From Nanobdellota archaeon (GTDB lineage Archaea; Nanobdellota; Nanobdellia; Parvarchaeales; Parvarchaeaceae): DNA of 64,000 bases. The position numbers were made by a program, and so were the translations under genes. The stretch spans positions 32,655 to 96,654 of the forward strand of contig JAJYWD010000001.1 of NCBI GenBank assembly GCA_021791655.1. The letters are read 5' to 3'. Under the pieces are notes generated by a model. The model saw only the letters and a list, made by a program, of their open reading frames with translations, had not been told where the DNA came from and made no database searches. This document shows positions 47,460-64,000 of the stretch, piece after piece (position 1 is the stretch's first letter; each line of letters opens with the position of its first letter).

Positions 47460-48985
47460 TGTTCCTTGACAGATCTAAAATAGAAGAGCGTACGTATCAA
47501 ACCTCTATATTTGAGAATACTAAGGATAAAAACTCTCTAATAGTTCTACCAACGGGACTGGGTAAGACGATAATCTCTGCCATGCTTATAGATTACAGAC
47601 TGTCTGAGTTTCCCGGCTCTAGGGCACTGTTTCTTGCGCCCACTAAACCGCTGCTAAACCAGCACGGAAAGACGCTTTCAAGGCTGATGAACTTGAAGCT
47701 TGCAGTTGTGAGTGGCTCAGTCAGCAAGGCCGAGAGAGGGGGGACGTATAAAGATAACGACCTGATACTTGCGACGCCACAGACGATAGAGAATGACATT
47801 GCTTCCGATTTGATTGATTTGTCTGCATTCAGCATAATAATAGTCGATGAAGCGCATCATTCCATAGGCAACTACGCATACGTCAAGGTAGCGGATGAAT
47901 TCCTTCGCAGGTCCTCGAAACCTAACATAATCGGGTTGACGGCTTCTCCAGCCTCCGACCAAGGTAAGATAATGGAAATCTGCAAGAATCTGCACATATC
48001 AACAGTTGAAATACGCGGAGAGGATGACTCGGATGTGTCCCCATACATAAAGACAAAGATAGTACAGGAAGAACGGATTGAACTGCCGAAGGAAATAAAA
48101 AGTATAATCGCAGAAATAAAAGGGATAATCGCTGACCAAGTGACTGCGCTGAAGGGCGTAGGTATATTGGCGGAGGTCCCAGCCAGCAGGATAAACCGCG
48201 TGACTATCCTGAAAGTTCAGAACGGTCTAATAAAACGTCTTAGATCCGACAGGAAATCGTGGTACGCCATCCGCGGCATAATAATAACGTCTAAGATACT
48301 AAAACTGTACCACGCACTGAATCTTGTATCTACCCAGAGCGTAGAAGCCTTTTATTTATTCTTATCCCGGCTCATGGCTGGGAAAGCAAAATCCGATAAG
48401 GAGCTTGCGAAGTCCGAGGCCGTCGCACACGTAATCGAGTCCGCTAGGGCACTCTTGGACAACGGAGAAGAGACTCCCAAGATAGAAAGGCTTAAGGAGA
48501 TACTGCAAAAGTCCGTAACCAAGGATAAACGTGCGATAGTTTTTACCCAGTACAGGGACAATGTTGATGTATTGTACAAGTATCTATCTAAGATGGATGG
48601 AATACGGCCCGCTAAGTTCATAGGCCAGGGCAGGAAAGGGCTCTCCCAGAAAAATCAATTGGAGATAATAAGGCAGTTTGAGGAAGGGACGATCAACGTT
48701 CTTATCTCCACCAGCGTTAGCGAGGAGGGCATTTCTATCAAAGGTGTTGATACCGCCGTATTCTATGAGACAGTATCCAGTGCTATAAGGATGATACAAA
48801 GAAAAGGGAGGGTTGGCCGATTTGATGTCGGGAAGATATACCTTTTAATAGCGGAAGACACCAATGACGAGGGTTATTTCTGGCTCTCTAAGAGAAGAGA
48901 GAAAGCAATGAGGAAAATAGTGTCAAAGATAAAGGACAATCCTTCTATGATAACCAACGACGGCACGCTCCGACCTTTCACTTAG
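47459..48985 (+). CDS. hef: Hef/ERCC4-family SF2 helicase (helicase domains only, no nuclease domain)
   Basis: 508 aa. Walker A LPTGLGKT, DEAH box IIVDEAHHSIG, then motif VI QRKGRVGR. It ends directly after helicase domain 2. Confidence 0.8.
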   Translation: MFLDRSKIEERTYQTSIFENTKDKNSLIVLPTGLGKTIISAMLIDYRLSEFPGSRALFLAPTKPLLNQHGKTLSRLMNLKLAVVSGSVSKAERGGTYKDNDLILATPQTIENDIASDLIDLSAFSIIIVDEAHHSIGNYAYVKVADEFLRRSSKPNIIGLTASPASDQGKIMEICKNLHISTVEIRGEDDSDVSPYIKTKIVQEERIELPKEIKSIIAEIKGIIADQVTALKGVGILAEVPASRINRVTILKVQNGLIKRLRSDRKSWYAIRGIIITSKILKLYHALNLVSTQSVEAFYLFLSRLMAGKAKSDKELAKSEAVAHVIESARALLDNGEETPKIERLKEILQKSVTKDKRAIVFTQYRDNVDVLYKYLSKMDGIRPAKFIGQGRKGLSQKNQLEIIRQFEEGTINVLISTSVSEEGISIKGVDTAVFYETVSSAIRMIQRKGRVGRFDVGKIYLLIAEDTNDEGYFWLSKRREKAMRKIVSKIKDNPSMITNDGTLRPFT

Positions 48986-49406
48986 TTAGTATTACTTGGA
49001 ACTCACCACCAGGTCCATAGGAGCTTCCGCCGGTTGTATTGCATACGTAGCGCTCAGTTCCTGTAACCAACTCGGTAAAGCTAAGGCCCTTAAGTCCCGC
49101 CTCGTAGCTGCCTATTTTGCCAGAATTATTATAAAGCGAATATGTTAGTCCGGGACTTCCCTCCGAAGCATTTACCTGATAATAGCAGCTCTGTGTGTTG
49201 CAGCTTAGATTTGCCGCTGATATCTGGCAAGGCAACGGGCTGTTTCCTGAGGTCGGCGTGGTCTTTCCCAAGCCCGGTAACGATGCAATGAATGAATGAA
49301 ATATTATTATTATTGCAAATACGGCGAACGCTATGAGTATGATCAAGACGATTATCGTCTCTACAGCCGAAGCGCCGGCCTTATCGCCTAAGAAGTTTCT
49401 GCGCAT
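48978..49406 (-). CDS. Surface protein with prepilin-like N-terminus
   Basis: 142 aa. MRRNFLGDKAG|ASAVETIIVLIILIAFAVFAIIII (Glu at +5 after the Gly) is followed by a sequon/Cys-containing domain. It overlaps the upstream gene by 19 nt. Confidence 0.5.
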   Translation of the reverse strand: MRRNFLGDKAGASAVETIIVLIILIAFAVFAIIIIFHSFIASLPGLGKTTPTSGNSPLPCQISAANLSCNTQSCYYQVNASEGSPGLTYSLYNNSGKIGSYEAGLKGLSFTELVTGTERYVCNTTGGSSYGPGGEFQVILTK

Positions 49407-50869
49407 AAGTATATCTGATTTCTGCCTAGGAATGAAGTGGATCCCGTGTATAGACCCCCCAACGTCGTAATATAATTAAATATCCCCTCTGCGCACTGCT
49501 GCAAGCCGCTCGATGTAAGTAATGCTGTGCTTATTGCGTTTAGTATTGGGGGTATGATATATTGATTACATGGTTGATTAGAGGCGCAAGCTGCCGTAGC
49601 AAAACCACCCGCTACTGATGCGAGTGCGACTTTTCCCATTATAACTCCGCTATCACCAGTACCGCCTACGCCCAAAACTGCACCACTATAAACGATTATT
49701 GCTCTTGTGCACTCATCTCTTATGGAGTTAGTTGGATAGTTATTGAAAAACGTCTGCGGTGTGCACTCTTGCGGTAAAGAGACGGTCGCAGGTGGGAATC
49801 TAGTATTTGTGAACGAATTCATATAGACTAAATAAAGATCTGCGTGACTTATGCTCTGAGAAGAATTAATCCGACTGAAGTTCGATATGCCACTAGTCTT
49901 GTTTTTATAGCTGTATATGAGATCAAGGCCGGGCTTTAGGTAATTGAAATAGCTTTCATTTTCTATTGCGGTCGGATTTACCGATTCTGTGAGGAGACAA
50001 GACGGGGGCGATTGATAAGAGTCTATTGTGGGATTGTAATCCACCGTACAATTGTATACGCCTTCCGGGTTTTTAGTGCAGAAATTTTGATAGCTCTGCG
50101 TGCACGCGTCTATTTTATTATCGGTCGTGTTTACGCAGGATTGCTGTGAATCATTGAAATAGCACCCCTGCGACGGCTCGCACAGCTCTGTGGACATGTT
50201 TAGGCTGGCCGAGGGATTCGCCCCAGTGAGAGGGATGTGCGTAGTAACGTATCCTTGGTACACATTGTTATAATTCGGTTGCGTCTTGCAGATTGAATAA
50301 TTCAACTCAGTTTTTTGGCAAAGCGTAGGCGTATTGGTGTCGCACACGAAACCCTGCTGGTAGTTTGGACAGGCCTGTTGCGGCGTGTACCCTGTGCAAC
50401 TTATGTGCGAACTAAAGGTGCTGTCTTCCAGGTATTTGGTCAAATTATTGAATGTGATGTTCGTATTTGTGTTTATAGACAATACGCTGCAAAGTCGGGG
50501 CTGTGCGCTGACGACTAGGCTTTGGTTCGCCCCAAACTGGTACCAGCACGTCGATAATGCGGTGGTTATGCCCCCCAATGTCTGGGCCGGAGAGCTCTGG
50601 GAATCATAGTTTAGCGTTGATGTGCTACATCCCAACAGAGGAGGGACCAATCCAAGATTAGAAAGGGAAGAAGACAGGCAGAAGAATTGCGGCACTACGC
50701 ACAGATCTTGATAGAAGAAATTACGCACGTTGGAGCTGACGAAACAAGCGGAACCCGAAGCGAATCCGAAGCCGAGTATCAAAAAGTAGCCGAAAACTAC
50801 TATTATAACGAACGCTATGACCGCAAATAGTATGAGTAGTGCAGCCTTCTCCAAGCCGGTTTGAGCCAT
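49388..50869 (-). CDS. Cys-rich, sequon-rich secreted/membrane-anchored protein
   Basis: 493 aa with an N-terminal hydrophobic helix, about 30 Cys and many N-x-S/T sequons. No recognisable domain. Confidence 0.55.
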   Translation of the reverse strand: MAQTGLEKAALLILFAVIAFVIIVVFGYFLILGFGFASGSACFVSSNVRNFFYQDLCVVPQFFCLSSSLSNLGLVPPLLGCSTSTLNYDSQSSPAQTLGGITTALSTCWYQFGANQSLVVSAQPRLCSVLSINTNTNITFNNLTKYLEDSTFSSHISCTGYTPQQACPNYQQGFVCDTNTPTLCQKTELNYSICKTQPNYNNVYQGYVTTHIPLTGANPSASLNMSTELCEPSQGCYFNDSQQSCVNTTDNKIDACTQSYQNFCTKNPEGVYNCTVDYNPTIDSYQSPPSCLLTESVNPTAIENESYFNYLKPGLDLIYSYKNKTSGISNFSRINSSQSISHADLYLVYMNSFTNTRFPPATVSLPQECTPQTFFNNYPTNSIRDECTRAIIVYSGAVLGVGGTGDSGVIMGKVALASVAGGFATAACASNQPCNQYIIPPILNAISTALLTSSGLQQCAEGIFNYITTLGGLYTGSTSFLGRNQIYLCAETS

Positions 50870-50940
50870 ACCTCATATCCACACGGATAATTAAAATACT
50901 TTAGATTGCTAAAAGTGCCAACTGAATGGCAACTAAAACC

Positions 50941-52185
50941 TTAGCACGTGGCTAGATTGTTCCCGCTGCTCTGTACCGTTAAGGAGCCAGCAGGAGAATT
51001 TGTCGTTTCGTTCGGGTATTCTCCACTGACACTCGAACAGAAATAGCCGTTGGAATTCGTCGTGGCAGTTACTACCTGTTTCTGATAGCTTCCGCTATTT
51101 GGAAAGGATATGCTTATTGTTTGGCCGCTTGCCGGCACGCCGTTGTATAAAAGGGTGCCGTTTGCATACGTATAAGGACACAGCGCCCTCGGAGAGCAGT
51201 TGTGGAACCATTCCTTAGCGCTCGATACAACGTATCCAGAAGCGGTCGAGACAGTGGAATTTGTTACGCACACGAACACTCTGTCCTGCCCAACTGTCAT
51301 TGCATTTATAAGATACCCGCAGAACGATACAAAGTAAGCGTTCTGGCACACTTGCTGTGGGTTGGTAGAGCTTCCACCGAGTGCGAATTCGCCGTTTGTA
51401 AGCGAACTCACCGGCTCGTAGGCTTGGCTCACGGTGCTATTGCCAAAAGAACATGAGGAGTCTGGTACGGATGGCTGGCCGTACTGGCTAACGAACTGGC
51501 ACCTCTGGACGAAAGGCACGTAACAGCCGGTAGGTGGCTTGTTGTACGGGTATCCAAAGTAGGCCACCTGATAATTCGAATTGTTATAGACTATCTGGTT
51601 TAAATCAGGGTATGCCGCTGGACGAGGAGTCTGTGCACTCGATCCGTTCGTTATGAATACGATCTGCAGAGGATTTTGTGGTGAGTAATAATTCTGGTCT
51701 ATGTAATTTATGCCGTAAGCGAAAGTGGTTAAGTTGCTGGTCTCATAATTGTAGATCCTTCCCACATAACACGTGAATACGTTATTTAGTTCGTTGCTGC
51801 TTAGTAGGCTTATTCCGGTGCTGTAATCATTTCCTTGGAACAGGTTGAAGCACGACGACGCCTTAGTGTAAAGCTGATTGGCTATATCCGTCGTGCTGTA
51901 CGCGTTGATGTTACTTGTTTGAATGCATGCAGACTGCAGGGATGTCGCTCCGAATCCCGCTGGCGGCACAAGGTTCAGCGTGCTTCCAAAGGAATACAGG
52001 AGGGAAAACGCGGGGTTATTTATTACGCTGTACGCCAGAAAATCGAAATAACATTTTATCCCGAAACTTTGAGCCCCAACCGACGTTCCAAGTACGAAAA
52101 CGAACGTAAACAGGATGACGGCGGCTATGATTATGAGTACCAGCTCCAGAATAACCGATACAGTTGGAAAAGCTATCGCCATCAT
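50941..52185 (-). CDS. Cys-rich, sequon-rich secreted/membrane-anchored protein
   Basis: 414 aa. MMAIAFPTVSVILELVLIIIAAVILF recalls the bacterial pseudopilin FTLIELLVV segment. The rest is Cys- and sequon-rich. Confidence 0.55.
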   Translation of the reverse strand: MMAIAFPTVSVILELVLIIIAAVILFTFVFVLGTSVGAQSFGIKCYFDFLAYSVINNPAFSLLYSFGSTLNLVPPAGFGATSLQSACIQTSNINAYSTTDIANQLYTKASSCFNLFQGNDYSTGISLLSSNELNNVFTCYVGRIYNYETSNLTTFAYGINYIDQNYYSPQNPLQIVFITNGSSAQTPRPAAYPDLNQIVYNNSNYQVAYFGYPYNKPPTGCYVPFVQRCQFVSQYGQPSVPDSSCSFGNSTVSQAYEPVSSLTNGEFALGGSSTNPQQVCQNAYFVSFCGYLINAMTVGQDRVFVCVTNSTVSTASGYVVSSAKEWFHNCSPRALCPYTYANGTLLYNGVPASGQTISISFPNSGSYQKQVVTATTNSNGYFCSSVSGEYPNETTNSPAGSLTVQSSGNNLATC

Positions 52186-52340
52186 CTGCCTCCGAATATG
52201 TTGGATAAAGTCGAAAACGGCGAGGCGCCGTGTATGCTAGCGTAATATACGGCGTAGACTATCAGTATAGCGACAGCCAAGGAAACCAGCACCACTATCA
52301 GCCATATCACTCTCCATTCTAGACTGCCCTTTGGGTTCAT
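52182..52340 (-). CDS. Small single-TM peptide with KG-SLE prepilin-like start
   Basis: 52 aa, MNPKGSLEWRVIWLIVVLVSLAVAILIV…, not in the supplied ORF track (below 60 aa). Its stop overlaps the start of the 414-aa gene, and its start is 2 nt after the upstream stop. Confidence 0.35.
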   Translation of the reverse strand: MNPKGSLEWRVIWLIVVLVSLAVAILIVYAVYYASIHGASPFSTLSNIFGGR

Positions 52341-52341
52341 A

Positions 52342-52857
52342 TCATTGTCCTGCGCAAGGCGGGCAGAACTTGCTGTCGCCCGCTACGCACGTGGGGATGT
52401 TTATCGCACAGTTCTCTATGTTGGTGGAATTGTCCGCGACTATCGTGCTTTTCTGGCAGCTTTCCAGCGCTGCAGTATTTGCCGGAGAAAGGTCTCTACA
52501 GCCCTGTATGACTTGCGGATATGCAGAAGGGAACTGTATGCAAGTCTGTACGTTCGTTACTTCGGAACCTGGTTGTTTTGATAGATAATAGCACCAGTGG
52601 GTTATGCACGTCTGATTGGCTGTCGCTTGGTCGTAACATGCGTCCGTTAGGTAACACCTGAAAAGAGGCGTGCCTTCCATTCTGTTCGCGTAGCCGTATT
52701 CTGCCTGCGTGAACTGGTTTTCGATTATGTTATTATTGTTACATCCGACGGGGAAGACTGGGGAAAAATCAGCCAGGAATACGTAAAATATCACCACTAT
52801 CACTATAACTGCGAACACTACTCCTATCAGTATGAATTCCTCTACATTCTCCTGCAT
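52342..52857 (-). CDS. Cys-rich membrane-anchored protein
   Basis: 171 aa, MQENVEEFILIGVVFAVIVIVVIFYVF, followed by about 14 Cys including a C-terminal CPPCAG. Confidence 0.5.
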   Translation of the reverse strand: MQENVEEFILIGVVFAVIVIVVIFYVFLADFSPVFPVGCNNNNIIENQFTQAEYGYANRMEGTPLFRCYLTDACYDQATANQTCITHWCYYLSKQPGSEVTNVQTCIQFPSAYPQVIQGCRDLSPANTAALESCQKSTIVADNSTNIENCAINIPTCVAGDSKFCPPCAGQ

Positions 52858-54907: not shown

Positions 54908-55423
54908 ATGGCTGAAATATGTTACAGCTGCGGCAGGTCCGCTTATTTCTATTCACCATATCTTAAGTACAATCTGTGCAAAAAGCACTTTCAGAAGATG
55001 GTGATAAGACGCATACGTTCCGGCTTGATAGCCAGCGGTATAAAAGACAAAAAGTTCAGATTTGCAGCCGATGATTCCTTAGGTTTTAAGCTGAACCGCC
55101 TTATTTTTAAAGAGGATAAAAACTCCGGCACCATGCTGATGAATTGCCTGTTGGAAGATTTCGCTATGGAGACAATAACCTACTTTATATCCGGTTCGGT
55201 CCCTGCGATAAAGATAAAGGGCAAGGGATACGTTAGTCCCCTCTTTTTGATATCAGAGGCAGAGGCTATTAGGTTCGTTGAGAGCAAGAGTGGAAATGTG
55301 GGGCTGGTGCAGAGAAGGGCTCAGGATGCCGTTATTTTTAATCTGCTAACAACCGTGGAAAAGAAAAGGCCGGGTGGCCTCATATCTCTCGTGAAAATGG
55401 GCCAACGAATGGAAATAATCTAA
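54908..55423 (+). CDS. Hypothetical protein with N-terminal zinc ribbon
   Basis: 171 aa, CYSCGRS…CKKH, then an alpha/beta domain with no motif I recognise. Divergent from the ParA gene. Confidence 0.4.
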   Translation: MAEICYSCGRSAYFYSPYLKYNLCKKHFQKMVIRRIRSGLIASGIKDKKFRFAADDSLGFKLNRLIFKEDKNSGTMLMNCLLEDFAMETITYFISGSVPAIKIKGKGYVSPLFLISEAEAIRFVESKSGNVGLVQRRAQDAVIFNLLTTVEKKRPGGLISLVKMGQRMEII

Positions 55424-55683
55424 GTGTGCTTTGCTTTATTGTAATATTTTTTGTGTACGGTGTCGCCCCAGCTGAACTTGCCGTGTTCTATTTTTTCTAT
55501 GACTATCAGGTCTCCTCTGGCAAGTGCGGTTTTAAGATAGTGATAAACCAGTCTGCTGGAAAGTCCCTCGTACTTTTCCTTTAGTGCCTTGTAGATCCCA
55601 TACCCGGTGAGCTGTTCACTGCCGACCGTATTTATTATGTCATTCAATAGCTCTTCATTGATTTTTTTAGCCATGTTACCCAC
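55420..55683 (-). CDS. Small winged-helix DNA-binding protein
   Basis: 87 aa. …TGYGIYKALKEKYEGLSSRLVYHYLKTALARGDLIVIEKIEHGKF is wHTH-like. It is the last gene of the secFD-extended operon. Confidence 0.4.
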   Translation of the reverse strand: MGNMAKKINEELLNDIINTVGSEQLTGYGIYKALKEKYEGLSSRLVYHYLKTALARGDLIVIEKIEHGKFSWGDTVHKKYYNKAKHT

Positions 55684-56185
55684 ACTGCGGAGCCGAATTA
55701 TTAATAGATTTGCAGATGTACTCCAGTATTCCGGAGTCTGCAGCGGAAAGGCTAGGGTAGCTGCCTATCTTGGAATAAGCCCCGCCAAAGATAAAGAGCG
55801 GCACGCTGCCACCAGAAGTATTTCGCAGTATACTGAGCGCTTCCGGGGGGATGGAGACGCTGCCGTTCGTGCTGTAGCCGCTCATATTAAACGCATACGC
55901 GCAGAAATAACCGCTGTAAAAGTCCTGTCCGGTCCATATACCGAAAAGAGAGGTGTCGTTTCTGAATGCGGCATATTCGCCAAAGCAGTCTTCACAAGTA
56001 TTGTCATAGTACATCAGCATGGAGGGCTTTCCTAGGCCGCACAGAGACGACGTGTTTATGTTCGCATTGTGCACCGAGTAATAACTGTTTAGATAGCTAA
56101 CGTTCTCGTATAAGACGGCAGAGAACACGGCCAATCCCGCTATCAGGACGATGTAAACGACAATATACGCCTTTGCTCTATACAT
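55676..56185 (-). CDS. Membrane-anchored CxxC protein, putative extracytoplasmic thiol-disulfide oxidoreductase
   Basis: 169 aa with an N-terminal TM, then …YYDNTCEDCFGEY… (CxxC) in a thioredoxin-like context. Sequon-rich. Confidence 0.4.
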   Translation of the reverse strand: MYRAKAYIVVYIVLIAGLAVFSAVLYENVSYLNSYYSVHNANINTSSLCGLGKPSMLMYYDNTCEDCFGEYAAFRNDTSLFGIWTGQDFYSGYFCAYAFNMSGYSTNGSVSIPPEALSILRNTSGGSVPLFIFGGAYSKIGSYPSLSAADSGILEYICKSINNSAPQCG

Positions 56186-57128
56186 AAAACGAAGCGTTTA
56201 CATCCGGCTTCGCGCTGGTACAGTTATTACTAGCAGTATCTATGCAGATGTTTGTTACGTTAGCCCCCAATGTTGAGAACATGTATTTGTATGCGAAGGG
56301 ATCGTACACGTTTTCATTCGGTATGAAATTGAATATGTTAATGGTAGAGTTACACGGCTTTATCTGCGGAAAATAGTAGACTAGGTTCTGGAACGGCCCA
56401 GTTATGTAAATTCCCTTTACGAGAGTACCGTTCGGCATGCTTATTACTTCCTGCTCTAGCTGCGTTATGTTTATAAGTGCGCTTAGCATTGAAGCCGTGC
56501 TATTCGATGTGCTATTGAGTAGGTTTATGTCATCTCGCACGCCGCTTAACAGATTGTATAAATCAGAGCCATTAACCGACTGCACGATGCTACTGTTATA
56601 AAGCGTCTCAAATTCGTATTTTGTGAAATTGTAGAGTTCGGATGTATAAGCATAGTCTGTGTTGTTGATGAAAAGGGAGTATAGCTGCTGCTTAATCGCA
56701 CCGCACGCCGTAGAATTATAAATAGAACATACTGTGTACTCGTTGATCTTTTCATTTATGCTGTTAAGATTGTTGAGTGCGTTCTCTTGCGTCTTGTTGA
56801 GATAATACGAGAGGTTTCCCACCCCCGGCAGTGAGCCGCTCAGGTTAAATACCGGGAGCGGGGTAAATTCTCTATTGCAGTTTACCACCAGATTCTCGGT
56901 ATCCAGATTACCGCTAGAATTGTAGAGGACGAACAGATTTGAGTCGTTGGACAGGTTGTAGTAATCCAGAAAGTCGTTTACCTTTATCGAATTAGCTGAT
57001 AACTGTTTTGTCGTGTTATAAGACGTATTCGTGAAAGATGAAATGTCGCTGGAGTAGACCAAGACGGTTAACACCAAGGCAATCACCAAAAAAATCGCAA
57101 GCGTCAGCGTTTTTCTATCGGTTTTCAT
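56178..57128 (-). CDS. Heavily N-glycosylation-sequon-rich secreted protein (signal anchor)
   Basis: 316 aa, MKTDRKTLTLAIFLVIALVLTVLVYS, then more than 30 N-x-S/T sequons. No recognised domain. Confidence 0.5.
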   Translation of the reverse strand: MKTDRKTLTLAIFLVIALVLTVLVYSSDISSFTNTSYNTTKQLSANSIKVNDFLDYYNLSNDSNLFVLYNSSGNLDTENLVVNCNREFTPLPVFNLSGSLPGVGNLSYYLNKTQENALNNLNSINEKINEYTVCSIYNSTACGAIKQQLYSLFINNTDYAYTSELYNFTKYEFETLYNSSIVQSVNGSDLYNLLSGVRDDINLLNSTSNSTASMLSALINITQLEQEVISMPNGTLVKGIYITGPFQNLVYYFPQIKPCNSTINIFNFIPNENVYDPFAYKYMFSTLGANVTNICIDTASNNCTSAKPDVNASFYV

Positions 57129-57913
57129 ACGCTTAATCTTTCTCTTAGGGCCTTTGCGAGCAACTCCGGTTCTGTGTTTATAGTTCTTATGCCGAGTATT
57201 TCCATATTTGAAACATCTCTTCCATATAGTTTTACCGTGAAGTGTCCATACTCCCTTTCTACGAGTGCAATCGTTTCGAATTTACCGGCATTCAGCAATC
57301 TTTTTATTAGTCCCGCAAGATCAAATGATAGCACAGAATCCATGTCTCCGATCTTCAGGTGCTTGATTGGGGCTATCTCCACCTCTATTTCTTGATGCGG
57401 AGAGTAAGGGACAAAAGCCACGAAATTTTCCGTCTTTTTTATCTCCCTGTTCGCTGTGTTTTTCGTGTTCTGACACACCCGGCAGGTGCCGCCGTTTAAG
57501 TGTGGAATTTCGGTGATCGTAATATCGAAGTACCCGTGTCCGCCGACTCTTCTGGATATCACCAAGTTTTTGCCAAATTCATACGCAGACAATGAATTTG
57601 TCCTGTCCTTTATCAGCATTAGCAGGTCGGATAGGTCCTCAGCAGAATAAACCGACAGTCTGTCGCGGTGATCGTCATTTTCTACAAGTATCTCTTCGTA
57701 TCCATCTGCGTTAGAGTGCTTGAAAGTGTCGCCTTCGAGAGCGTACTTTGACGGCTGTATACTGTCCTTTATGTCATAAACTTTCAGCTTTGCTCTTGCA
57801 GCTTCCAGTACAATCGGAGCTTCCTTAGGGTGGTCGCACGCCTTGCAGTTTTTCTCTTTACCTGCCACAAGTGCAAACGAAAGATCCGAATTATCCAGTC
57901 TAAATTCGTTCAT
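57125..57913 (-). CDS. HIT-superfamily GalT-like nucleotidyltransferase/phosphorylase
   Basis: 262 aa. NCKACDH provides a CxxC/His zinc site like GalT, and a …VPYSPHQEIEV… second half-domain follows. Assignment tentative. Confidence 0.4.
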   Translation of the reverse strand: MNEFRLDNSDLSFALVAGKEKNCKACDHPKEAPIVLEAARAKLKVYDIKDSIQPSKYALEGDTFKHSNADGYEEILVENDDHRDRLSVYSAEDLSDLLMLIKDRTNSLSAYEFGKNLVISRRVGGHGYFDITITEIPHLNGGTCRVCQNTKNTANREIKKTENFVAFVPYSPHQEIEVEIAPIKHLKIGDMDSVLSFDLAGLIKRLLNAGKFETIALVEREYGHFTVKLYGRDVSNMEILGIRTINTEPELLAKALRERLSV

Positions 57914-57914
57914 A

Positions 57915-59486
57915 TCAGCTTAGCGCCACCCCCACCATCTTTGCATAGGCCGGTCTGGTTATCAACAAACCAACAAGCGACGCCAGTATTGTCGTCAGTG
58001 CAAAGCCGGTGAACAGGCTGGCCGTTGAGAAGAACAATGGAAACATGATCGCCGCAAAGGATAGGAATGATACCGTGATTATGAAAAAGGCCCTCTGTAT
58101 TCTTTTCTTTACACTCGCGCCCTCCGCTATGGTTGAGCCCCTGCGTATCTCATCGGTTATTATTATCTGGTCATCCACTGATATACCTACGCTTGCTATT
58201 ATACCGGCTATGCTAGGTATATCAAGTGTCCAGTGTATGAGAGCAGCTAAGCCTATGACCACGAATATCTCCGCTGCACTCGTCATGAGTATCATCGCTG
58301 ATATCTTGTAATTTCTGTACCTAAGGAATATCACTATGCTGGTTACAACGAAGGCGGACAAAAGCAGTATGTAAATCTGGCCTATGAACTGTGTACCTTC
58401 GACCGGCGAAACCGAATTTATTGAGACTATCTTTACGGCTATAGGCAGGCTGCCGCTCTCCAGTATGGCCTGCAGTGTCTTCATATTATTATACGCCTGC
58501 TGGTAAGTTGCGCCGTAACCCTGTATCTGTATCACTTGCTGTACTTGTCCCTTAAGGTTTGAATTGACCTGCAGGGACGACACCTGTTTGTTGTTTAGGA
58601 AAAGCAATATCGGATGCTTAAGGTAGCCGTTGACAATCGGAATCGTCTTTGTTGCGTTCGCAAACGTTTCTGCTGCAAGTTTGCTTATCTGTATGCCAAA
58701 ATCGAATTGGTACCCGCCGTTCGATTGCGTGGGCGGCTGAAGCCCTCCGTACGGACAACTGGAGGTAAGACACACGTTAAGTATGCCCTCGTTAGGGTTA
58801 CTATTGTTTATTACTGTAACGTTGTTTATCTGTGCGTAGAAAGAGCCCTGGTTGTTTACCAGTGAGAAAGCCTCGGCTTCGCTCACGCTGGGCATGCTGA
58901 CCTGCACGAACGAACTGCCGGACACTGTTTGTATGGAGTTTACAGAGATGCCGCTTATGCCGTATGTGTTAAGCCTTGCGTTTAGTATGGTCTGTATCTG
59001 CGATATATCGGTACTGTTGTAGTGTGTGGAATTGGGTGCCAGCAGTATCTGCGTACCGCCTATTATGTCGAGTCCGTAATTTAGGTTTGAGCTTGGGACG
59101 TCCTGCACCTGTATGTAAGTGGAGTTTATCGGCGCCGCGCCGGATACCGGCACTTTTACCTGCTGAGGTACGAATATGTACGGAAATATCTGGTTGCTGT
59201 AGCTTATGGTTATTGTCGAGTTCGGGAGTGCGGTCCGGTTTAGCACGGAATAGAACTGCTGCGCATTTTGTGTGCTCAGCCCATTTATCGATGTTATTAC
59301 TGAACCAACTCCCAGCGTTGTAGCACCGTTTGCGCTGAGGTTTCCGAGCAGAGAATAAGGAGATAGGTATATGATTTCTGCACCCCCTATGCCGAAGTTG
59401 GGTTCTATCGCCAGGAACGCTATTATGAGTGTGGCTATGAGCACCAAGATCCTCCAATCTTTAAGCACGCTTTTCGGGTTTTCCAT
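57915..59486 (-). CDS. secD: Protein-export membrane protein SecD
   Basis: Start set to MENPKSVLKDWRILVLIATLI. One TM helix, a large sequon-rich periplasmic domain, then six C-terminal TM helices with …GISVDDQIIITDEI…. The raw ORF extends 63 nt upstream. Confidence 0.8.
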   Translation of the reverse strand: MENPKSVLKDWRILVLIATLIIAFLAIEPNFGIGGAEIIYLSPYSLLGNLSANGATTLGVGSVITSINGLSTQNAQQFYSVLNRTALPNSTITISYSNQIFPYIFVPQQVKVPVSGAAPINSTYIQVQDVPSSNLNYGLDIIGGTQILLAPNSTHYNSTDISQIQTILNARLNTYGISGISVNSIQTVSGSSFVQVSMPSVSEAEAFSLVNNQGSFYAQINNVTVINNSNPNEGILNVCLTSSCPYGGLQPPTQSNGGYQFDFGIQISKLAAETFANATKTIPIVNGYLKHPILLFLNNKQVSSLQVNSNLKGQVQQVIQIQGYGATYQQAYNNMKTLQAILESGSLPIAVKIVSINSVSPVEGTQFIGQIYILLLSAFVVTSIVIFLRYRNYKISAMILMTSAAEIFVVIGLAALIHWTLDIPSIAGIIASVGISVDDQIIITDEIRRGSTIAEGASVKKRIQRAFFIITVSFLSFAAIMFPLFFSTASLFTGFALTTILASLVGLLITRPAYAKMVGVALS

Positions 59487-59487
59487 A

Positions 59488-60414
59488 TCACCGCGTAGCC
59501 TGATGCGGCTCTTCAGAATAGTGCATGGCTGCCAATTGTATGGATCCATTCAGTATCCATACGGTGAAATCGTCGAATATCACGCCGATTATGAGTATGA
59601 TTGCTATACTCTGTATAGTCGTATTGGTGGTGCCCAAGAACAGGACTATGAACGTAAGCAGCGCTGCAGCGTCCATCGTCAGCGATGTCTTTATGGTATG
59701 GGACAGACGGTATTTTACGCTCGCTTCTTTTCTTTTCAGGATGTTGGTGGCAAGTATTATGTTCCTATCCGCGGAATATCCCATTAGCATAAGTATCCCC
59801 GCTATGGAAGCGGTAGAGAACGAAATGGCGAGAAGATCCATGACCCCTATGACGTTTATTACGTCGCTTATTATGCTTATGACATTGGAAAAAGACTGTG
59901 CAGGGTTTCTGAAGTAGAACAGTGATACGAACGCCACCAGTATGAATGCGGCGCCGAGGAGTATGAATGAGTCATATATAGAGTTCTGAGCTATTGCCGG
60001 GCTGACAAAGTTTATGTTGGAATTCGTACTGGTCACTGGTGCTAGGAACGATGACACCGTGCTGTTTAGCGCCCGGGTTGTGGAGTTCTTTGCGGTTATT
60101 GTATAGCCTATTATGTTATTCGAGAACTGGGAGTGGAGGACCGCCACGCTGACCTCCGTCTTAAGGCTTGACGCCAGTTCGTTTGTCAGCGTCTGCACAT
60201 TGACGCTCTTGTTTGTGTTTATTGTGAGGGAAATCCCTCCGGACAGTGAGATGTCCTCGTTAACAGGAGTGCCGTGCTGTAAGTAATAAGTCGCGATTAT
60301 GCCCCCGAATACGACCACCAGTGCTATGGGTAAGAACACCATCTTCTTGTAGTGCCTTACGTAGAAAGCTACAAACTCCTCTATGCGTGAATTAACAGCG
60401 CTCTTTACGCCCAT
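59488..60414 (-). CDS. secF: Protein-export membrane protein SecF
   Basis: 308 aa. One TM helix, a periplasmic domain, then six TM helices with …GYSADRNIILATNILKRK…. In the archaeal secF-secD order. Confidence 0.8.
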   Translation of the reverse strand: MGVKSAVNSRIEEFVAFYVRHYKKMVFLPIALVVVFGGIIATYYLQHGTPVNEDISLSGGISLTINTNKSVNVQTLTNELASSLKTEVSVAVLHSQFSNNIIGYTITAKNSTTRALNSTVSSFLAPVTSTNSNINFVSPAIAQNSIYDSFILLGAAFILVAFVSLFYFRNPAQSFSNVISIISDVINVIGVMDLLAISFSTASIAGILMLMGYSADRNIILATNILKRKEASVKYRLSHTIKTSLTMDAAALLTFIVLFLGTTNTTIQSIAIILIIGVIFDDFTVWILNGSIQLAAMHYSEEPHQATR

Positions 60415-60451
60415 AACATTTAAGTATCAAATATACACATAAGGGCGCTAT

Positions 60452-61159
60452 TTAAGAATTTAAGCCTTCTACGATAATCTTCGGACCTTCTCTGGTCGCA
60501 TACTCCTCGCATGCTTCTTCCGGCCATGAAGATGGCATTCCGTCGAAGGCACCTTCAAGCTCTCGGCGTTTCCCGTGGTAATTGTTCCCGCTGTAGCGCC
60601 TTCCAGGGCAGTACTTGAACAGGTCGTCCTTTACCAGCAGAACGGAGCTTGTCTTCATGCCGTACTGTGTTTTAAGTTTGCCTAGTCTTCTTGCAAGTTT
60701 GTATGCACCCGCCTCCGCTTTCGCCTTGTCCATTCTGGTTGTGGATATCGCGATAGAAAACCTTACCTCATCCGCACCGTACAGGATATGATTCAGGTTT
60801 CTGTACGGCAACGCCTCCTCTGCCATGCTAAGTTTCTTCTTTATCTTGTTCGTTCCCAAGCGGAACGTATTTGTCGTCATCGTCCTGACTTCTATAATCT
60901 CGACTATCCTCTTGTTCCCTTCGTTATACCTTATCACGACGTCGGCAGGCCACATCTTCTTTGACTGCATTCTGCCCTTTCCTTTCCCGTTTCTGTAGAA
61001 GTAGAACATGTACTCCATTCTGGCGGCTTCCAGGTCTCTGCGTGATGACTCGTACTTATAAACCGCCATCTGTGTTAGTTTGTGGTATAAGGATGCGCCA
61101 GAAGTAGCTACGTCGTCTATTAGAACTTCCTCTAATCTGCTACGGGCTTTTTGTATCAT
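60452..61159 (-). CDS. Hypothetical basic protein (possible PD-(D/E)xK-like nuclease fold; weak)
   Basis: Start chosen at MIQKARSRLEEV. …WPADVVIRYNEGNKRIVEIIEVRT… resembles a D…E-x-K core. Lys/Arg-rich. Confidence 0.35.
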   Translation of the reverse strand: MIQKARSRLEEVLIDDVATSGASLYHKLTQMAVYKYESSRRDLEAARMEYMFYFYRNGKGKGRMQSKKMWPADVVIRYNEGNKRIVEIIEVRTMTTNTFRLGTNKIKKKLSMAEEALPYRNLNHILYGADEVRFSIAISTTRMDKAKAEAGAYKLARRLGKLKTQYGMKTSSVLLVKDDLFKYCPGRRYSGNNYHGKRRELEGAFDGMPSSWPEEACEEYATREGPKIIVEGLNS

Positions 61160-61218
61160 TGGATACAATATGTGATAGAGAGGATATACTATTAATATAT
61201 TATACAGCATCTCTTTCT

Positions 61219-61860
61219 ATGCGCGCGCAGTTCTCATCAGAATTCGTGATAGACGCTTCTATAGTGGTGATAGTGGTCAGTTTTCTACTGCTTTTCTTTA
61301 GTCCGTTGCTAAGCCAGAACACCGGCTCCATTTATCTTTCTTCTGCCTGCACTGAAGTAGCGGATTCTGTCAATACCGTCGCCGACTCAAACGGCGCATC
61401 TGCGATAATATACACCCCGCTGCTTAACGAGACGCCGTTCGGTTATTACAATGTTACCCTATCAAACGGCATAATCACGGTATATTCGAATCTTTCCAGG
61501 TACACCACGCAGCTGGTCTCCTGCGGCGCCGACACTTATAGAACGGGCAGTGAGAGCTTCCTGCTGTCCAATCTCGCTGTTTATTCGTCTGGCAGTACGG
61601 TTGGTGCCGCTTACCTTTACGGCAGCAGCGCAAGTTCCAGTGCGCCGCCCTCGGTGATTTACGGGGGGGGTTTCCAGTCCTCGGTCACCTTGTACTTGAT
61701 CAGCGCTGCCTCTTACATCAAAAACTATTCGGAGTCGCAATCGTTCTCTCAGAGTGTTAGTTCGGAGATCTCGACATTAGCTGATGGCAGTTATGCTTTC
61801 TTAGCAGTGCAGAATAACAATACGCGCATAAGGGTCTTGTTCCCGTTCTCAAAGGGTTAA
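61219..61860 (+). CDS. Pilin-like surface protein (class III signal, QFSSEF start)
   Basis: Start chosen at MRAQFSSEFVIDASIVVIVVSFLLLFF. The mature part is Ser-rich with sequons. The raw ORF starts 60 nt upstream. Confidence 0.5.
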   Translation: MRAQFSSEFVIDASIVVIVVSFLLLFFSPLLSQNTGSIYLSSACTEVADSVNTVADSNGASAIIYTPLLNETPFGYYNVTLSNGIITVYSNLSRYTTQLVSCGADTYRTGSESFLLSNLAVYSSGSTVGAAYLYGSSASSSAPPSVIYGGGFQSSVTLYLISAASYIKNYSESQSFSQSVSSEISTLADGSYAFLAVQNNNTRIRVLFPFSKG

Positions 61861-61963: not shown

Positions 61964-62434
61964 ATGCCAAAAAATGCCCAATCAGCATTAGAGTACATGA
62001 TGACCTATGGCTGGGCGATACTTATCATCGTCATAGTGGCCGCGGTCCTGTACAGTCTAGGCATTTTCAATCCAAGCAGCAGCGCTGGCAATACGGCTAG
62101 CGGCTTTGGCGGCTTTACGGTGCAGCAGGGTGGATTCACGTGCAATTCTACTGGCGTGTTCCTAGCATTAGGAAACTCGCAAGGTACGCAAGTTACAGTG
62201 CTAAACGCAAGTATAACGTCTTCAACTGGTTTGAGTACCCCTACGGGTAGCAATGGTTCTATCAATAAACTTGTAAATCCGCAGAGTACGATTACAATAA
62301 AATTCACATCAAACACCTGTTCCATCACTGGTGCAAGATACAGCGCTAACATACAGATCTATTACAGTACGACTGGAGCTCTAGGCACACAAACACAGCC
62401 GACTACCGGTACAATCTCAGGATCTTCCAGTTGA
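61964..62434 (+). CDS. Archaeal type IV pilin-like protein (DUF361-like N-terminus)
   Basis: 156 aa, MPKNA|QSALEYMMTYGWAILIIVIVAAVL, with a Thr/Ser-rich mature domain containing sequons. Confidence 0.55.
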   Translation: MPKNAQSALEYMMTYGWAILIIVIVAAVLYSLGIFNPSSSAGNTASGFGGFTVQQGGFTCNSTGVFLALGNSQGTQVTVLNASITSSTGLSTPTGSNGSINKLVNPQSTITIKFTSNTCSITGARYSANIQIYYSTTGALGTQTQPTTGTISGSSS

Positions 62435-62464: not shown

Positions 62465-63391
62465 TTACTTAATTATTCCTTTCTCTTCTAGTAATTTTCT
62501 TGTCGATATAGCGGACATGCAGCCCCAGCCAGCAGCGACTACGGCCTGTTTGTACATATGATCCTGCACGTCCCCAGCAGCAAAGACACCCTCCTTGCTA
62601 GTTTTTACATTATCATGTGTTATAATGTAGCCATTTTTGTCGAGATCTAACTGGCCCTTGAACAGTTCTGTGCTCGGGTCGTGTCCTATAGCTACGAACA
62701 GTCCACCGCATCCCTCTGTCTTCTCGTTGCCGGTATCAATGTTACGTAACCTCACGCCAATTACGTTGTTATCACCCATTACATCTGTTACTTCCGAGTT
62801 CCAGATGACCTTTATTTTTTCGTTTTTGAGCACCCTCTCCTGCATTATTTTGCTTGCCTTGAACTCGTTTCTCCTGTGTACTATCTTTACACTCTTTGCA
62901 AATTTGGTGAGGTACAGAGAATCTTCCATTGCGCTGTCACCGCCGCCAACAACAATAACGTCCTTGCCCCTGAACAAGGGTCCATCGCATACAGCACAAC
63001 CGGATACGCCCTTTCCTACAAGCCTTAGTTCGTTCTTCAGCCCCAACCATCTTGCACGTGCGCCCGTCGCGATTATGAGCGTATAAGTCTTGTACTCCGT
63101 GTCTCCTACGAAAATGGAATATGGATATGCCGACAGGTCGACTCTGGTAACGTCATCGTTTAGCATTCTTGTCCCGAGTTGCGAAACTTGGTCATCCATG
63201 GCCTGCATCAGGTCCGGCCCGAGTATCGATTTGAAAGCAGGGAAATTCTCCACCGCAGAGGTCAGCATTAGTTGCCCGCCGTACTCCTTTCCTCTTATTA
63301 ATAACGGGTCTAGGTTATCTCTTGAAGCGTATATCGCAGCAGTGTAGCCCGCGGGCCCGGAGCCTACTATTATAACTTTTTCAACCATCAA
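62465..63391 (-). CDS. trxB: Thioredoxin reductase
   Basis: 308 aa with FAD motif IIVGSGPAGYTAAIY, redox centre CAVCDG and NAD(P) motif VVGGGDSA. Confidence 0.85.
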   Translation of the reverse strand: MMVEKVIIVGSGPAGYTAAIYASRDNLDPLLIRGKEYGGQLMLTSAVENFPAFKSILGPDLMQAMDDQVSQLGTRMLNDDVTRVDLSAYPYSIFVGDTEYKTYTLIIATGARARWLGLKNELRLVGKGVSGCAVCDGPLFRGKDVIVVGGGDSAMEDSLYLTKFAKSVKIVHRRNEFKASKIMQERVLKNEKIKVIWNSEVTDVMGDNNVIGVRLRNIDTGNEKTEGCGGLFVAIGHDPSTELFKGQLDLDKNGYIITHDNVKTSKEGVFAAGDVQDHMYKQAVVAAGWGCMSAISTRKLLEEKGIIK

Positions 63392-63522
63392 ATTAAAAGC
63401 AGACGCTGACTTAAATAAAATTTGTTTTTAGCATAGCGTGCTGTATTAACTTATTTTTGTAAGTTATCACAGCGCTTTAAAAAGTAAGTATATAATAAAC
63501 AAAATCGCTTTTATCTGATTGT

Positions 63523-63595
63523 GCCCCGATAGTCTAGAGGCCAAGGACATCGCCCTTTCGAGGCGATGACCCGGGTTCGAATCCCGGTCGGGGCA
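63523..63595 (+). tRNA. tRNA-Glu (anticodon UUC)
   Basis: GCCCCGATAGTCTAGAGGCCAAGGACATCGCCCTTTCGAGGCGATGACCCGGGTTCGAATCCCGGTCGGGGCA. All four arms pair, with anticodon loop CTTTCGA and T-loop TTCGAAT. Confidence 0.85.
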
Positions 63596-64000
63596 GGCCT
63601 TGATTAGTTAATGTTTCTTGTCGTCTTTAAATTAAGTAAAATTTGAGGTGTGAATATGAAAGACGATGCGAGAAAAAGAATCTTTGATAATGAAATCAAA
63701 GACATTACAAACGGCTCTGATATCTTAAATATAAACAAGAAGATTCTTTTATAGTTCTTAAACTTCAAGCAAAGCCAAGGCCTCACGTTCAATCGGGTGA
63801 ATCGAATATCCGTGGCCCTTAAACATATCTTTAGAAGCGTCAAGTATAATGTGCGGGCCATAGATTAGAAGAAGGCCCAAGGAATAGTCATAGCCATCAA
63901 TAGCAATTCCAAATGGAAAGACTGGACAAAGAACTCTAATGTAAAAGTCTTCAAGAACTTCCTTCGATGGCTCAACAAAACATATAAGACAACGATAGAT

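Follow-up and report, generated by a model that had tools for sequence, protein, structure and literature searches.

The window analyzed here is a 64,000-nucleotide stretch of DNA from a Parvarchaeota (ARMAN-like DPANN) MAG. Parvarchaeota are tiny, acid-loving archaea. The following features lie on the minus strand:

60415..60451, minus strand: upstream spacer of secF, 37 nt, rich in A and T; a TATA-like TATATTT lies about 24 nt ahead of the ATG
59488..60414, minus strand: secF, 308 aa (Pfam SecD_SecF_C, 67.2 bits against a cut-off of 20.5)
57915..59486, minus strand: secD, 523 aa from ATG 59486 (Pfam SecD_SecF_C, 51.3 bits; NCBIfam archaeal SecD, E 3e-82)
57125..57913, minus strand: predicted cytosolic GalT-fold (double HIT-lobe) protein, 262 aa (profile against PDB, AF2, Foldseek)
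56178..57128, minus strand: p316, predicted ectoprotein with an N-terminal anchor, 316 aa, from an orphan family (21 sequons, 6 invariant Cys)
55676..56185, minus strand: p169, predicted N-in/C-out anchor and extracytoplasmic thioredoxin-fold domain, 169 aa (AF2, Foldseek, Pfam)
55420..55674, minus strand: PadR-like winged-helix (wHTH) protein, 84 aa, or 87 aa if GTG 55683 is the start (Pfam PadR, 14.2 bits against a cut-off of 27)
55366..55381, minus strand: candidate terminator-like hairpin with a T-rich tail, from a consensus scan only

As the initial annotation had described, six co-directional minus-strand ORFs run from 60414 to 55420, and the short overlaps and spacers between them were confirmed by reading the junctions from the sequence (+1, +1, -4, -8 and +1 nt). 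The secF/secD and secD/GalT-like junctions both read TGA-t-ATG, the GalT-like/p316 junction ATGA and the p316/p169 junction ATGTATAG, while the p169/wHTH junction is TAA-c-ATG when the 84-aa protein starts at ATG 55674 and would become -8 nt with the GTG start. Profile matches in Pfam and NCBIfam bear out the identities of secF and secD, with secF matching the archaeal SecF NCBIfam models at E 1e-38, below their equivalog cut-offs. The secD start of the gene callers (ATG 59549, 544 aa) overlaps secF by 62 nt; we favor the shorter form because secD orthologs are 525-536 aa long, with secF/secD junctions of -4 to +2 nt. Among the features first recorded, the ORFs, the junctions and a CEDC motif were accurate, the count of sequons being the exception.

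The 37-nt spacer is a likely candidate for the operon promoter, possibly giving rise to a leaderless mRNA, and in 13 orthologous loci the spacer upstream of secF is 47-80 nt long and AT-rich, with TATA-like boxes. Two genomes carry AT-rich spacers of 57-67 nt between secD and the GalT-like gene, which could provide a second promoter site. Runs of five or more T number only 3 in 5 kb on the coding strand of the operon (that strand has about 1.4 per kb window-wide), and the terminator-like hairpin falls about 40 nt past the last stop codon, within the 3' end of a convergent gene. The six genes are probably co-transcribed.

Conservation of the gene order

No other tight run in the window is as long as that of these six genes. 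Taken alone, a series of five tight junctions is only mildly unusual, because 23 of the 41 same-strand neighbor pairs in the window (56%) lie 5 nt or less apart, giving a chance expectation of about 0.56^5 = 0.055. The arrangement was not initially known as a conserved one; synteny comparison of related genomes found its order conserved across Parvarchaeota. Every species-level relative whose contig is long enough shows this gene order and tight junctions (GalT-like/p316, -4 to -17 nt; secF/secD as above), the p316/p169 overlap of -8 to -23 nt being present in all genomes compared. Conservation, of order and of junctions, carries the weight of the observation. The most divergent lineage found (L031) keeps just secF-secD, a TM-anchored protein with 15 sequons and p169, and we therefore regard these as the core of the operon and the two ectoproteins as constant partners of secDF. 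Both the GalT-fold and the wHTH gene are absent from this divergent version, which is one of two related operons that lack the wHTH gene.

It is possible, if rather doubtful, that the six genes are packed together, and perhaps co-transcribed, only because the DPANN genome is compact and syntenic, with no specific link to SecDF. In this case p169 would belong to the TlpA/ResA/MdbA type of membrane-anchored extracytoplasmic thiol-disulfide oxidoreductases and have a general role, p316 would be an unrelated surface glycoprotein and the GalT-fold protein a sugar-nucleotide enzyme. The proportion of tight junctions in the window is consistent with such packing, as are the absences of the wHTH gene and a contig (L023) on which the GalT-like gene stands alone, adjoining enolase and S2. 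Moreover, synteny in most relatives also takes in the wider neighborhood (MinD, L15e, helicase), with unrelated genes over more than 13 kb, so that adjacency by itself is weak evidence of shared function. Against this, the six-gene order survives where its flanks have been rearranged (L033), the core remains together in the most divergent lineage, and the window's other long runs of tightly spaced genes, those of ribosomal proteins and nuoLMN, are true operons.

Two predicted ectodomain proteins

The CEDC motif noted in the 169-aa protein lies at residues 64-67 (C64-E-D-C67). The AF2 model of p169 (pLDDT 91.3, pTM 0.81) has a strand at 55-60 and then the CxxC at the helix 1 N-cap (helix 67-79); P129 occupies the cis-Pro position, and after it come two strands (130-133, 137-140) and a helix (146-160). 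Its best Foldseek matches are Trx, Grx, TrxP, StoA, DsbA and TlpA, at modest E-values (2.7e-3). The p169 of the window matches no Pfam thioredoxin family; across the 34 family members, matches to AhpC-TSA (10/34), Redoxin (2/34) and Thioredoxin_7 (2/34) are all below threshold, and no member reaches a curated Pfam cut-off. Structure prediction, Foldseek and topology indicators nevertheless agree on the TM-anchored, outward-facing thioredoxin fold with a CxxC that had been proposed.

With its single N-terminal TM anchor, external Trx fold, CxxC at the start of helix 1 and proline at the cis-Pro position, p169 resembles TlpA/ResA/StoA/CcmG, actinobacterial MdbA/Mt-DsbA and Bacillus BdbD. Its sub-threshold matches point the same way, AhpC-TSA and Redoxin being the Pfam homes of TlpA-like proteins. 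It differs from this group in falling short of every curated cut-off, in having four further conserved Cys as well as three conserved sequons for N-glycosylation, in the wide variation of its CxxC dipeptide (ED, PS, AS, SS, KT, RT, QS, TT and others) and in the position of its gene in a secDF operon. In addition, the insert that separates helix 1 from the cis-Pro position is mainly beta, whereas that of DsbA is helical. No VKOR, DsbB or CcdA/DsbD redox partner was seen among the gene calls for most of the window (about 5-47 kb, except a gap near 26-27 kb, and 47-64 kb).

Within the p169 family C49, C95, C158 and P129 are invariant and C168 nearly so, as are the K-I-G core and the remainder, respectively, of a YYKIGGF motif. 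Three of the 34 members, on at least two separate branches, have TTST, TTSV or GQSS in place of the CxxC, and two of these members reside in intact operons. Such loss, together with the variable dipeptide, appears unusual for a tuned redox catalyst and, like the invariant residues elsewhere and the precedent of Mycoplasma MPN523 (see below), would suit a redox-inactive chaperone or structural subunit whose Trx fold binds or scaffolds, with the CxxC an optional extra. We consider this reading unlikely. Both cysteines are kept at the exact helix 1 N-cap in 31 of 34 members, and the proline at the cis-Pro position is also kept, which points to redox chemistry being under purifying selection in the majority of lineages. 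The disulfide catalyst of the initial annotation is upheld in its outward-facing Trx fold and weakened in its strictly catalytic sense.

More than 30 sequons had been claimed for p316; we counted 21 (N-x-S/T, x not P), compared with a mean of 8.4 in composition shuffles (sd 2.4, maximum 17 of 2000). At 6.6 sequons per 100 aa, p316 is the densest protein in the window and p169 the second (z 5.1 and 3.7), while proteins without a predicted TM segment have roughly 0-1.5 per 100 aa. The predicted placement of both proteins outside the membrane is supported by their basic N-termini preceding a single TM segment, these sequon densities, the conserved positions of the sequons and the conserved Cys. 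No match to p316 was found in Pfam, NCBIfam or PDB, and a search of 1.84 billion representatives returned only 16 hits. Six cysteines (C84, C134, C142, C259, C295 and C303) and a C-terminal N-x-S-F-Y are invariant, and its sequons are conserved. Direct reading of the N-terminus gives a 19-residue hydrophobic segment with no evident A-x-A cleavage site, which suggests a membrane anchor and not a released protein.

The initial annotation saw p316 as a highly glycosylated secreted cargo, exported and oxidized by way of the co-encoded SecDF and CxxC protein. Its sequon enrichment, its six Cys and the constant overlap of its gene with that of p169 are compatible with this idea. However, the N-terminus lacks an evident cleavage site, the protein has the character of a low-copy-type conserved orphan with invariant motifs, and we know of no precedent for a dedicated SecDF serving a single cargo; we find the proposal improbable. 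p316 looks instead like a conserved membrane-anchored component. The earlier interpretation is partly supported: the gene identities hold (that of the wHTH protein at a sub-threshold level only), whereas the sequon number and the cargo role do not.

The GalT-fold and winged-helix proteins

The GalT-like identity of the 262-aa protein is sound at the level of fold. Foldseek matched its AF2 model (pLDDT 66.5, pTM 0.70, residues 1-80 poor) to E. coli GalT 1hxp at E 1e-10, and profile searches against PDB retrieved the ADP-Glc phosphorylase At5g18200 (7e-7) and GalT 6k9z (2e-6). It shares with GalT/ADP-glucose phosphorylase (the GalT branch of the HIT superfamily; PDB 1hxp, 6k5z, 1z84) a two-lobe HIT fold, an N-terminal E-x-R-x-D-P-like motif, a C-terminal lobe that aligns at E ~1e-6 and two invariant sets of CxxC plus 2 His that match the metal sites. 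A canonical GalT was rejected: the protein is short (262 against ~310-350 aa), scores 14 bits against the TIGR00209 cut-off of 102, and in the hhalign motif alignment has GGHGYFD where HPHGQ is expected, the family motif GGHG[YFL]FD offering one His for HxHxQ and no Gln. The family is also unlike GalT in being confined to Parvarchaeota (10 clusters at 90% identity) and in the translational coupling of its gene to secD. The window protein scan found no TM segment and 0 sequons.

The initial 87-aa winged-helix assignment is retained as PadR-like at a sub-threshold level only, and as 84 aa. Half of its orthologs (7/14) match PadR (PF03551; best E 1.9e-4), hhalign aligns it with LmrR at E 0.004, and matches in PDB to Fur/PerR DNA-binding domains are weak. 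Although it shows the wHTH pattern TGY-I...S-RLVYHYL...G...KKYY of PadR regulators, it falls under their gathering score (14 vs 27 bits), belongs to a family of 82-84 aa without the C-terminal dimerization helix and, as noted above, can be missing from the operon.

The presence of a GalT-fold protein also allows a glycosylation-coupled module to be envisaged, in which this enzyme would supply or recycle nucleotide sugar for N-glycans and p169 would act like Ost3/Ost6 (TUSC3/MagT1), the thioredoxin subunits of eukaryotic OST, holding nascent-chain Cys to allow glycosylation of nearby sequons ahead of folding. The sequon density of p316 and p169 accords with this, and conserved p169 sequons flank conserved Cys (N44-x-S46 before C49, N76-x-T78 after the CxxC). 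Nonetheless, we judge it highly improbable: AglB/STT3 was not found among the window gene calls, p169 has one N-terminal TM segment and not the C-terminal four-TM bundle of Ost3/6, and the GalT-like protein has no intact HxHxQ and is absent from the divergent operon.

A proposed Sec-linked maturation module

The secDF operon context suggests, without amounting to proof, an export-coupled protein-folding module. We propose a Parvarchaeota-specific secFD operon with two N-glycosylated ectodomain proteins that acts as a Sec-linked extracytoplasmic maturation module, a reading to which we give an even chance. In this model, the genes of the SecF-SecD accessory Sec pump would share an operon with those of the two ectodomain proteins, both lineage-restricted, single-pass and N-glycosylated, and we infer that p316 and p169 may be functionally or physically coupled to SecDF and that p169 has redox or holdase activity. 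With its outward CxxC, p169 would most likely be a thiol-disulfide oxidoreductase and/or holdase, and p316, an orphan ectoprotein with three putative disulfides, would probably be a partner or scaffold, not cargo. The GalT-fold protein, with its metal-site residues kept and its catalytic motif incomplete, may be a cytosolic accessory addition; the PadR-like wHTH protein may be another, probably an autoregulator.

The best reading would make this module functionally analogous to membrane-anchored oxidoreductases of the TlpA/MdbA type and to the Sec-translocon "dome" of Mycoplasma. The SecYEG-SecDF translocon of M. pneumoniae carries an extracellular foldase dome that includes PrsA-like Mdps and the thioredoxin-fold MPN523, whose CxxC has been lost from part of the lineage and for which a redox-inactive chaperone or structural role has been proposed (bioRxiv 10.1101/2025.04.25.650208). 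Both systems combine a genome-reduced host, SecDF and an extracellular Trx-fold protein with partial CxxC loss, and the dome could serve as a template for the mechanism of a folding module coupled to export. Cryo-ET and cross-linking showed the Mycoplasma complex, whereas the Parvarchaeota link is one of gene order only. The Mycoplasma proteins are bacterial lipoproteins, p169 and p316 are archaeal TM-anchored glycoproteins of no sequence relationship to them, and p316 has no detectable similarity to PrsA.

In bacteria, SecDF/SecYEG has small single-pass membrane proteins and periplasmic chaperones that are encoded alongside it or dock onto it, as in the yajC-secD-secF operon and the holotranslocon (YajC, PpiD/YfgM). 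The Parvarchaeota operon likewise encodes small single-pass membrane proteins with SecDF; its extra genes, however, are archaeal, lineage-specific, without homology to these accessories and downstream of secFD, and include one for a cytosolic GalT-fold protein.

The clients of p169 would be Cys-rich proteins as these exit the Sec channel. Cys-rich proteins had been reported nearby, and a few kb away there are indeed secreted proteins with 4, 24, 14 and 12 Cys; these even counts fit with extracellular disulfide formation.

Layout and conservation of the operon

The ORF listing and a direct reading of the sequence place six co-directional genes on the minus strand from 60414 to 55420, flanked by a gene 5' of secF (up252) and by a convergent gene 3' of p84.

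The operon and its flanking genes
60452-61210, minus strand: up252, 252 aa, directly 5' of secF
59488-60414, minus strand: secF, 308 aa
57915-59486, minus strand: secD, 523 aa, starting at the ATG one base past the secF stop (gene callers: ATG 59549, 544 aa)
57125-57913, minus strand: GalT-like protein, 262 aa
56178-57128, minus strand: p316, a sequon-rich anchored orphan, 316 aa
55676-56185, minus strand: p169, a TM-anchored CxxC protein, 169 aa
55420-55674, minus strand: p84, a PadR-like wHTH protein, 84 aa (87 aa if the start is GTG 55683)
54908-55423, plus strand: convergent gene, 171 aa, overlapping the last operon stop by 4 nt

From secF to p84 the junctions are TGA-t-ATG, TGA-t-ATG, ATGA, ATGTATAG and TAA-c-ATG, so that both the gene order and the tight junctions described in the initial annotation are borne out. 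The spacer 5' of secF is AT-rich and TATA-like, here as in the orthologous loci, and only three runs of five or more T occur on the operon coding strand in 5 kb. No Rfam element, RNA leader or tRNA was found within the operon, and a scan for sigma-70 promoters and terminators was uninformative, the host being an archaeon. We infer that the six genes are co-transcribed. One of these three is a T7 run (57088-57094, minus strand) that lies 35 nt inside p316; the minus strand of the window has only three runs of seven or more T, and this one could serve as a pause site or terminator of the archaeal oligo-T kind.

With HMMs derived from four syntenic loci, the order up252, secF, secD, GalT-like gene, p316, p169, p84 and convergent gene was recovered in every species-level genome with a long enough contig, an arrangement that the initial annotation had not known to be conserved. 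These relatives go under the label Candidatus Parvarchaeota or "Nanoarchaeota archaeon"; ARMAN-5 contributes the p169 orthologue BJBARM5_0321.

Spacing between adjacent genes in orthologous loci (nt)
secF to secD: -4 to +2
secD to GalT-like gene: -4 to +4, with two exceptions that have AT-rich spacers of 57-67 nt
GalT-like gene to p316: -4 to -17
p316 to p169: -8 to -23
p169 to p84: -4 to +6, with one outlier whose start call is doubtful

The main rival explanation for this arrangement is that the genes simply lie together in a genome that is compact and syntenic. In the window, 23 of 41 same-strand gene pairs lie no more than 5 nt apart, and most relatives are also syntenic over a larger neighbourhood (a MinD-like ATPase, a pilin-like gene, L15e, Cys-rich genes and a helicase); by itself, adjacency is thus weak evidence. 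Four loci with variant arrangements bear on the same question. In L033 the six genes stay together despite rearranged flanks and the absence of up252. L032 lacks p84, and its p169 is followed by ribosomal genes. The locus with the most divergent p169, L031, has neither the GalT-like gene nor p84, its operon consisting of secF, secD, a 280-aa protein that has a TM anchor and 15 sequons (N-x-S/T, x not P), and p169; the 280-aa protein gave no HMM match to p316 and an hhalign E of 0.069, and is treated here as a positional analogue only. Finally, L023, a short contig labelled "Woesearchaeota", carries the GalT-like gene by itself (291-1151), with a C-terminal extension, no secD upstream, and enolase and ribosomal protein S2 following. 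From these four loci, the constant core thus comprises secF and secD together with one anchored, sequon-rich protein and the Trx-like one. In L032 (3712-5325; GCA_023269955.1) secD is broken into several frames, representing either a pseudogene or assembly frameshifts, and the GalT-like gene, p316 and p169 are intact.

SecDF, the GalT-fold protein and the small regulator

The family-level assignment of the two translocon genes is beyond doubt. Both pass the gathering cut-off of 20.5 bits for the C-terminal 6-TM domain (Pfam PF02355, SecD_SecF_C), with 67.2 bits for secF and 51.3 for secD, and the archaeal NCBIfam models match at E 1e-38 and 3e-82, respectively. The NCBIfam equivalog cut-offs (PRK08343/PRK08578) were missed, the best scores being 276.5 against 383 bits for secD and 133.1 against 330 for secF, as expected because these are divergent DPANN versions of the proteins.

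The 262-aa protein belongs to a very small family, comprising only ten 90%-identity clusters among 5.8 billion proteins. It scores 14 bits against the TIGR00209 cut-off of 102.1, and no family member reaches any Pfam GalT model. The C-terminal lobe of the family profile matched Arabidopsis ADP-glucose phosphorylase (1z84, E 7e-7) and GalT (6k9z, 2e-6) in the PDB. The AlphaFold (AF2) model is of moderate quality (pLDDT 66.5, pTM 0.70, with residues 1-80 poor), and Foldseek returned E. coli, archaeal, plant and human GalT-type structures at about 1e-10 (1hxp, E 9.7e-11; 6k5z, 1.5e-10; 1zwj, 4.6e-10). On these models the two-lobe HIT (GalT) fold holds. The invariant residues C23, C26, H82, H126, C144, C147, H185 and H224 make up two Cys2His2 sets, which we take to be the counterparts of the two metal sites in the structures of GalT and At5g18200.

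The active-site motif has diverged, the H-P-H-G-Q of canonical enzymes being replaced by G-G-H126-G-[Y/F/L]-F-D130. An hhalign alignment with the E. coli sequence places H126 on the nucleophile H166, Tyr on Q168 and Gly on H164. In an alternative register, argued from the symmetry of the metal sites, H126 is a Zn ligand and no nucleophile is left. In either register the H-x-H-x-Q motif is incomplete, with one essential His and the Gln missing. A canonical GalT is ruled out by the missed curated cut-off, the incomplete HxHxQ and the 262-aa length; the GalT-like assignment of the initial annotation stands at the level of the fold. The protein is predicted to be a non-canonical GalT-fold member, and it is assigned to the cytosol because it has no TM segment and no sequon.

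The last gene, p84, is plausibly a small wHTH regulator, judging from distant matches. The window protein reaches 14.2 bits against Pfam PadR (PF03551; gathering cut-off 27) and 7 of 14 orthologues match PadR (best E 1.9e-4), with the profile also weakly matching Fur/PerR DNA-binding domains. Its hhalign alignment to LmrR is sensible (E 0.004), at a probability of only 8%. In two related operons the gene is dispensable, being absent from them.

The anchored proteins and their possible role in export

The initial annotation had described p316 as a secreted cargo with more than 30 sequons. We counted 21, the only factual correction to the observation, against a mean of 8.4 in composition-preserving shuffles (sd 2.4, maximum 17). 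At 6.6 per 100 aa this is the highest sequon density in the window, followed by that of p169 at 4.1. No match to p316 was found in Pfam, NCBIfam or the PDB, and an exhaustive phmmer search of 1.84 billion representatives yielded only 16 relatives, nearly all of about 290-325 aa, with two shorter fragments. All orthologues share a basic N-terminus followed by a hydrophobic anchor of about 19 residues, and have six invariant Cys (C84, C134, C142, C259, C295 and C303), several position-conserved sequons and an invariant N-x-S-F-Y at the C-terminal end. Such a set of features suits a conserved glycoprotein component that is anchored in the membrane better than it suits a secreted cargo. Paralogy of p316 and p169 was rejected, as the hhalign match is confined to the TM segment.

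A single-sequence search with p169 found only itself; with a profile of orthologues taken from the syntenic loci, the family came to 35 members, all of Parvarchaeota type. The AF2 model built from 34 sequences (pLDDT 91.3, pTM 0.81) has a TM helix (2-35), a strand (55-60) and C64-E-D-C67 at the start of helix 67-79, then an insert (80-128) that is mostly beta, with three strands and two short helices. The invariant P129 follows, then strands 130-133 and 137-140 and a helix at 146-160. In the predicted structure, a thioredoxin motif, both the cis-Pro position and the CxxC (which marks the N-terminus of helix 1) are canonically placed, in agreement with the thioredoxin-like character first proposed for this protein. 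Almost all of the top 50 Foldseek matches in the PDB are Trx, Grx, TrxP, StoA, DsbA, TlpA or CcmG (probabilities up to 1.0; best E 2.7e-3). The window protein itself matches no Pfam or NCBIfam model, those of the curated thioredoxin clan included, and weak Pfam matches occur among 34 relatives to AhpC-TSA (10/34, best E 3e-4), Redoxin (2/34) and Thioredoxin_7 (2/34). Sub-threshold matches of the profile to the PDB (E 0.14-1) are to a Trx-like protein and the DsbA cis-Pro region.

Seven sequons are present in p169 (z 3.7), those at N44-x-S46, N76-x-T78 and N100-x-S/T being position-conserved, and beyond the CxxC motif C49, C95 and C158 are invariant and C168 nearly so. Together with the basic N-terminus before the single TM, these sequons and extra conserved Cys are consistent with a CxxC that faces outside. 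Both p316 and p169 have six Cys; even Cys counts are a hallmark of disulfides formed outside the cytoplasm. In three of 34 family members (P0020, P0025 and P0043) other residues stand in place of the CxxC, with the operon intact in the two checked, and the XX dipeptide is unusually variable, which counts against a purely catalytic role.

Several known systems were compared with p169. It is not DsbA proper, because its insert lacks the helical character of that of DsbA and neither DsbB nor VKOR lies nearby; AglB, VKOR, DsbB and CcdA/DsbD were all absent from gene calls covering most of the window. Ost3/Ost6 (TUSC3/MagT1) combine a luminal Trx domain with a C-terminal four-TM bundle and associate with STT3/AglB, whereas p169 has a single N-terminal TM and the window has no detected AglB partner. 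The closest functional templates are two: the membrane-anchored TlpA/ResA/MdbA-type enzymes for p169, and, for the operon, the Mycoplasma pneumoniae SecYEG-SecDF complex, which carries an extracellular foldase dome with a thioredoxin-fold protein whose CxxC is lost in part of the lineage (bioRxiv 10.1101/2025.04.25.650208). In our operon, SecDF and the thioredoxin-fold protein are linked by gene order.

The initial annotation had read the operon as coupling SecDF to a glycosylated cargo and an extracytoplasmic disulfide catalyst; the observation is real and conserved, and this interpretation is partly supported. The best-supported reading is of a lineage-specific operon that would join SecDF to two outward-facing single-pass glycoproteins, with p169, a predicted thioredoxin-fold oxidoreductase or holdase, probably handling the Cys of exported proteins. 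We infer this activity, as we would any contact with SecDF. A more ambitious proposal, which we consider rather unlikely, is that in Parvarchaeota SecDF, p316 and p169 constitute an extracellular chamber for folding and maturation, docked on the translocon. It would be the first of its kind in archaea, would have converged with the Mycoplasma Sec "dome" and would recall the eukaryotic Sec61-OST-Ost3/6 arrangement; its Trx-fold subunit would capture the Cys of heavily N-glycosylated surface proteins as they emerge.

The protein families represented here are new and unannotated, with folds that are known, and their arrangement is new. Three lineage-restricted families so far without annotation, the GalT-fold protein, p316 and p169, are now defined. 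To our knowledge, extracellular disulfide formation in most archaeal lineages other than those with VKOR or DsbA is poorly understood, as are the accessory factors of the archaeal Sec translocon. Many Cys-rich glycosylated surface proteins are exported by these ultrasmall acidophiles, and a conserved secDF operon with a predicted outward-facing Trx-fold protein provides a concrete candidate, amenable to cloning, for an oxidoreductase or holdase coupled to export in archaea. It also offers an archaeal parallel to the translocation-folding complex described recently in Mycoplasma.

Surrounding genes

Other features of the window
7808-10069, minus strand: MMPL/RND-type transporter, 753 aa
32885-34029, plus strand: two NDK genes overlapping in tandem, then a dCTP deaminase/dUTPase gene
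48978-52857, minus strand: four N-terminally anchored secreted proteins of 142, 493, 414 and 171 aa
53394-53834, minus strand; 61159-61860, plus strand; 61964-62434, plus strand: small proteins with class-III (type IV pilin-like) signals
62465-63391, minus strand: thioredoxin-reductase-like flavoprotein (Pyr_redox_2, CAVC motif)
63522-63596, plus strand: tRNA-Glu

The four anchored secreted proteins contain 4, 24, 14 and 12 Cys, all even numbers; the 142-aa protein looks pilin-like, and the synteny of the group is kept in relatives. The small proteins with class-III signals share a QSALEY...YG motif and lie on both sides of the operon. The flavoprotein gene lies 2 kb upstream of secF, and L031 has a similar Pyr_redox_2 gene a few kb beyond the downstream end of its divergent operon.

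Of the immediate neighbours, up252 has no match in Pfam or NCBIfam, is separated from secF by 37-80 nt and is syntenic in most relatives. The convergent gene keeps its position in all relatives except L032, at -8 to +7 nt from the operon, and encodes an N-terminal CxxC...CxxH zinc-finger with weak NcsA and TtuA_LIM_N matches and no PP-loop domain.

Synteny with relatives breaks at the tRNA-Glu, where a phage-integrase-family gene and a 924-aa ORF lie about 450 nt outside the window (L001 3075-3875); this region may be an integrated element. The MMPL/RND-type transporter, with 19 sequons (z 4.4), is also significantly enriched in sequons, the third such protein in the window.
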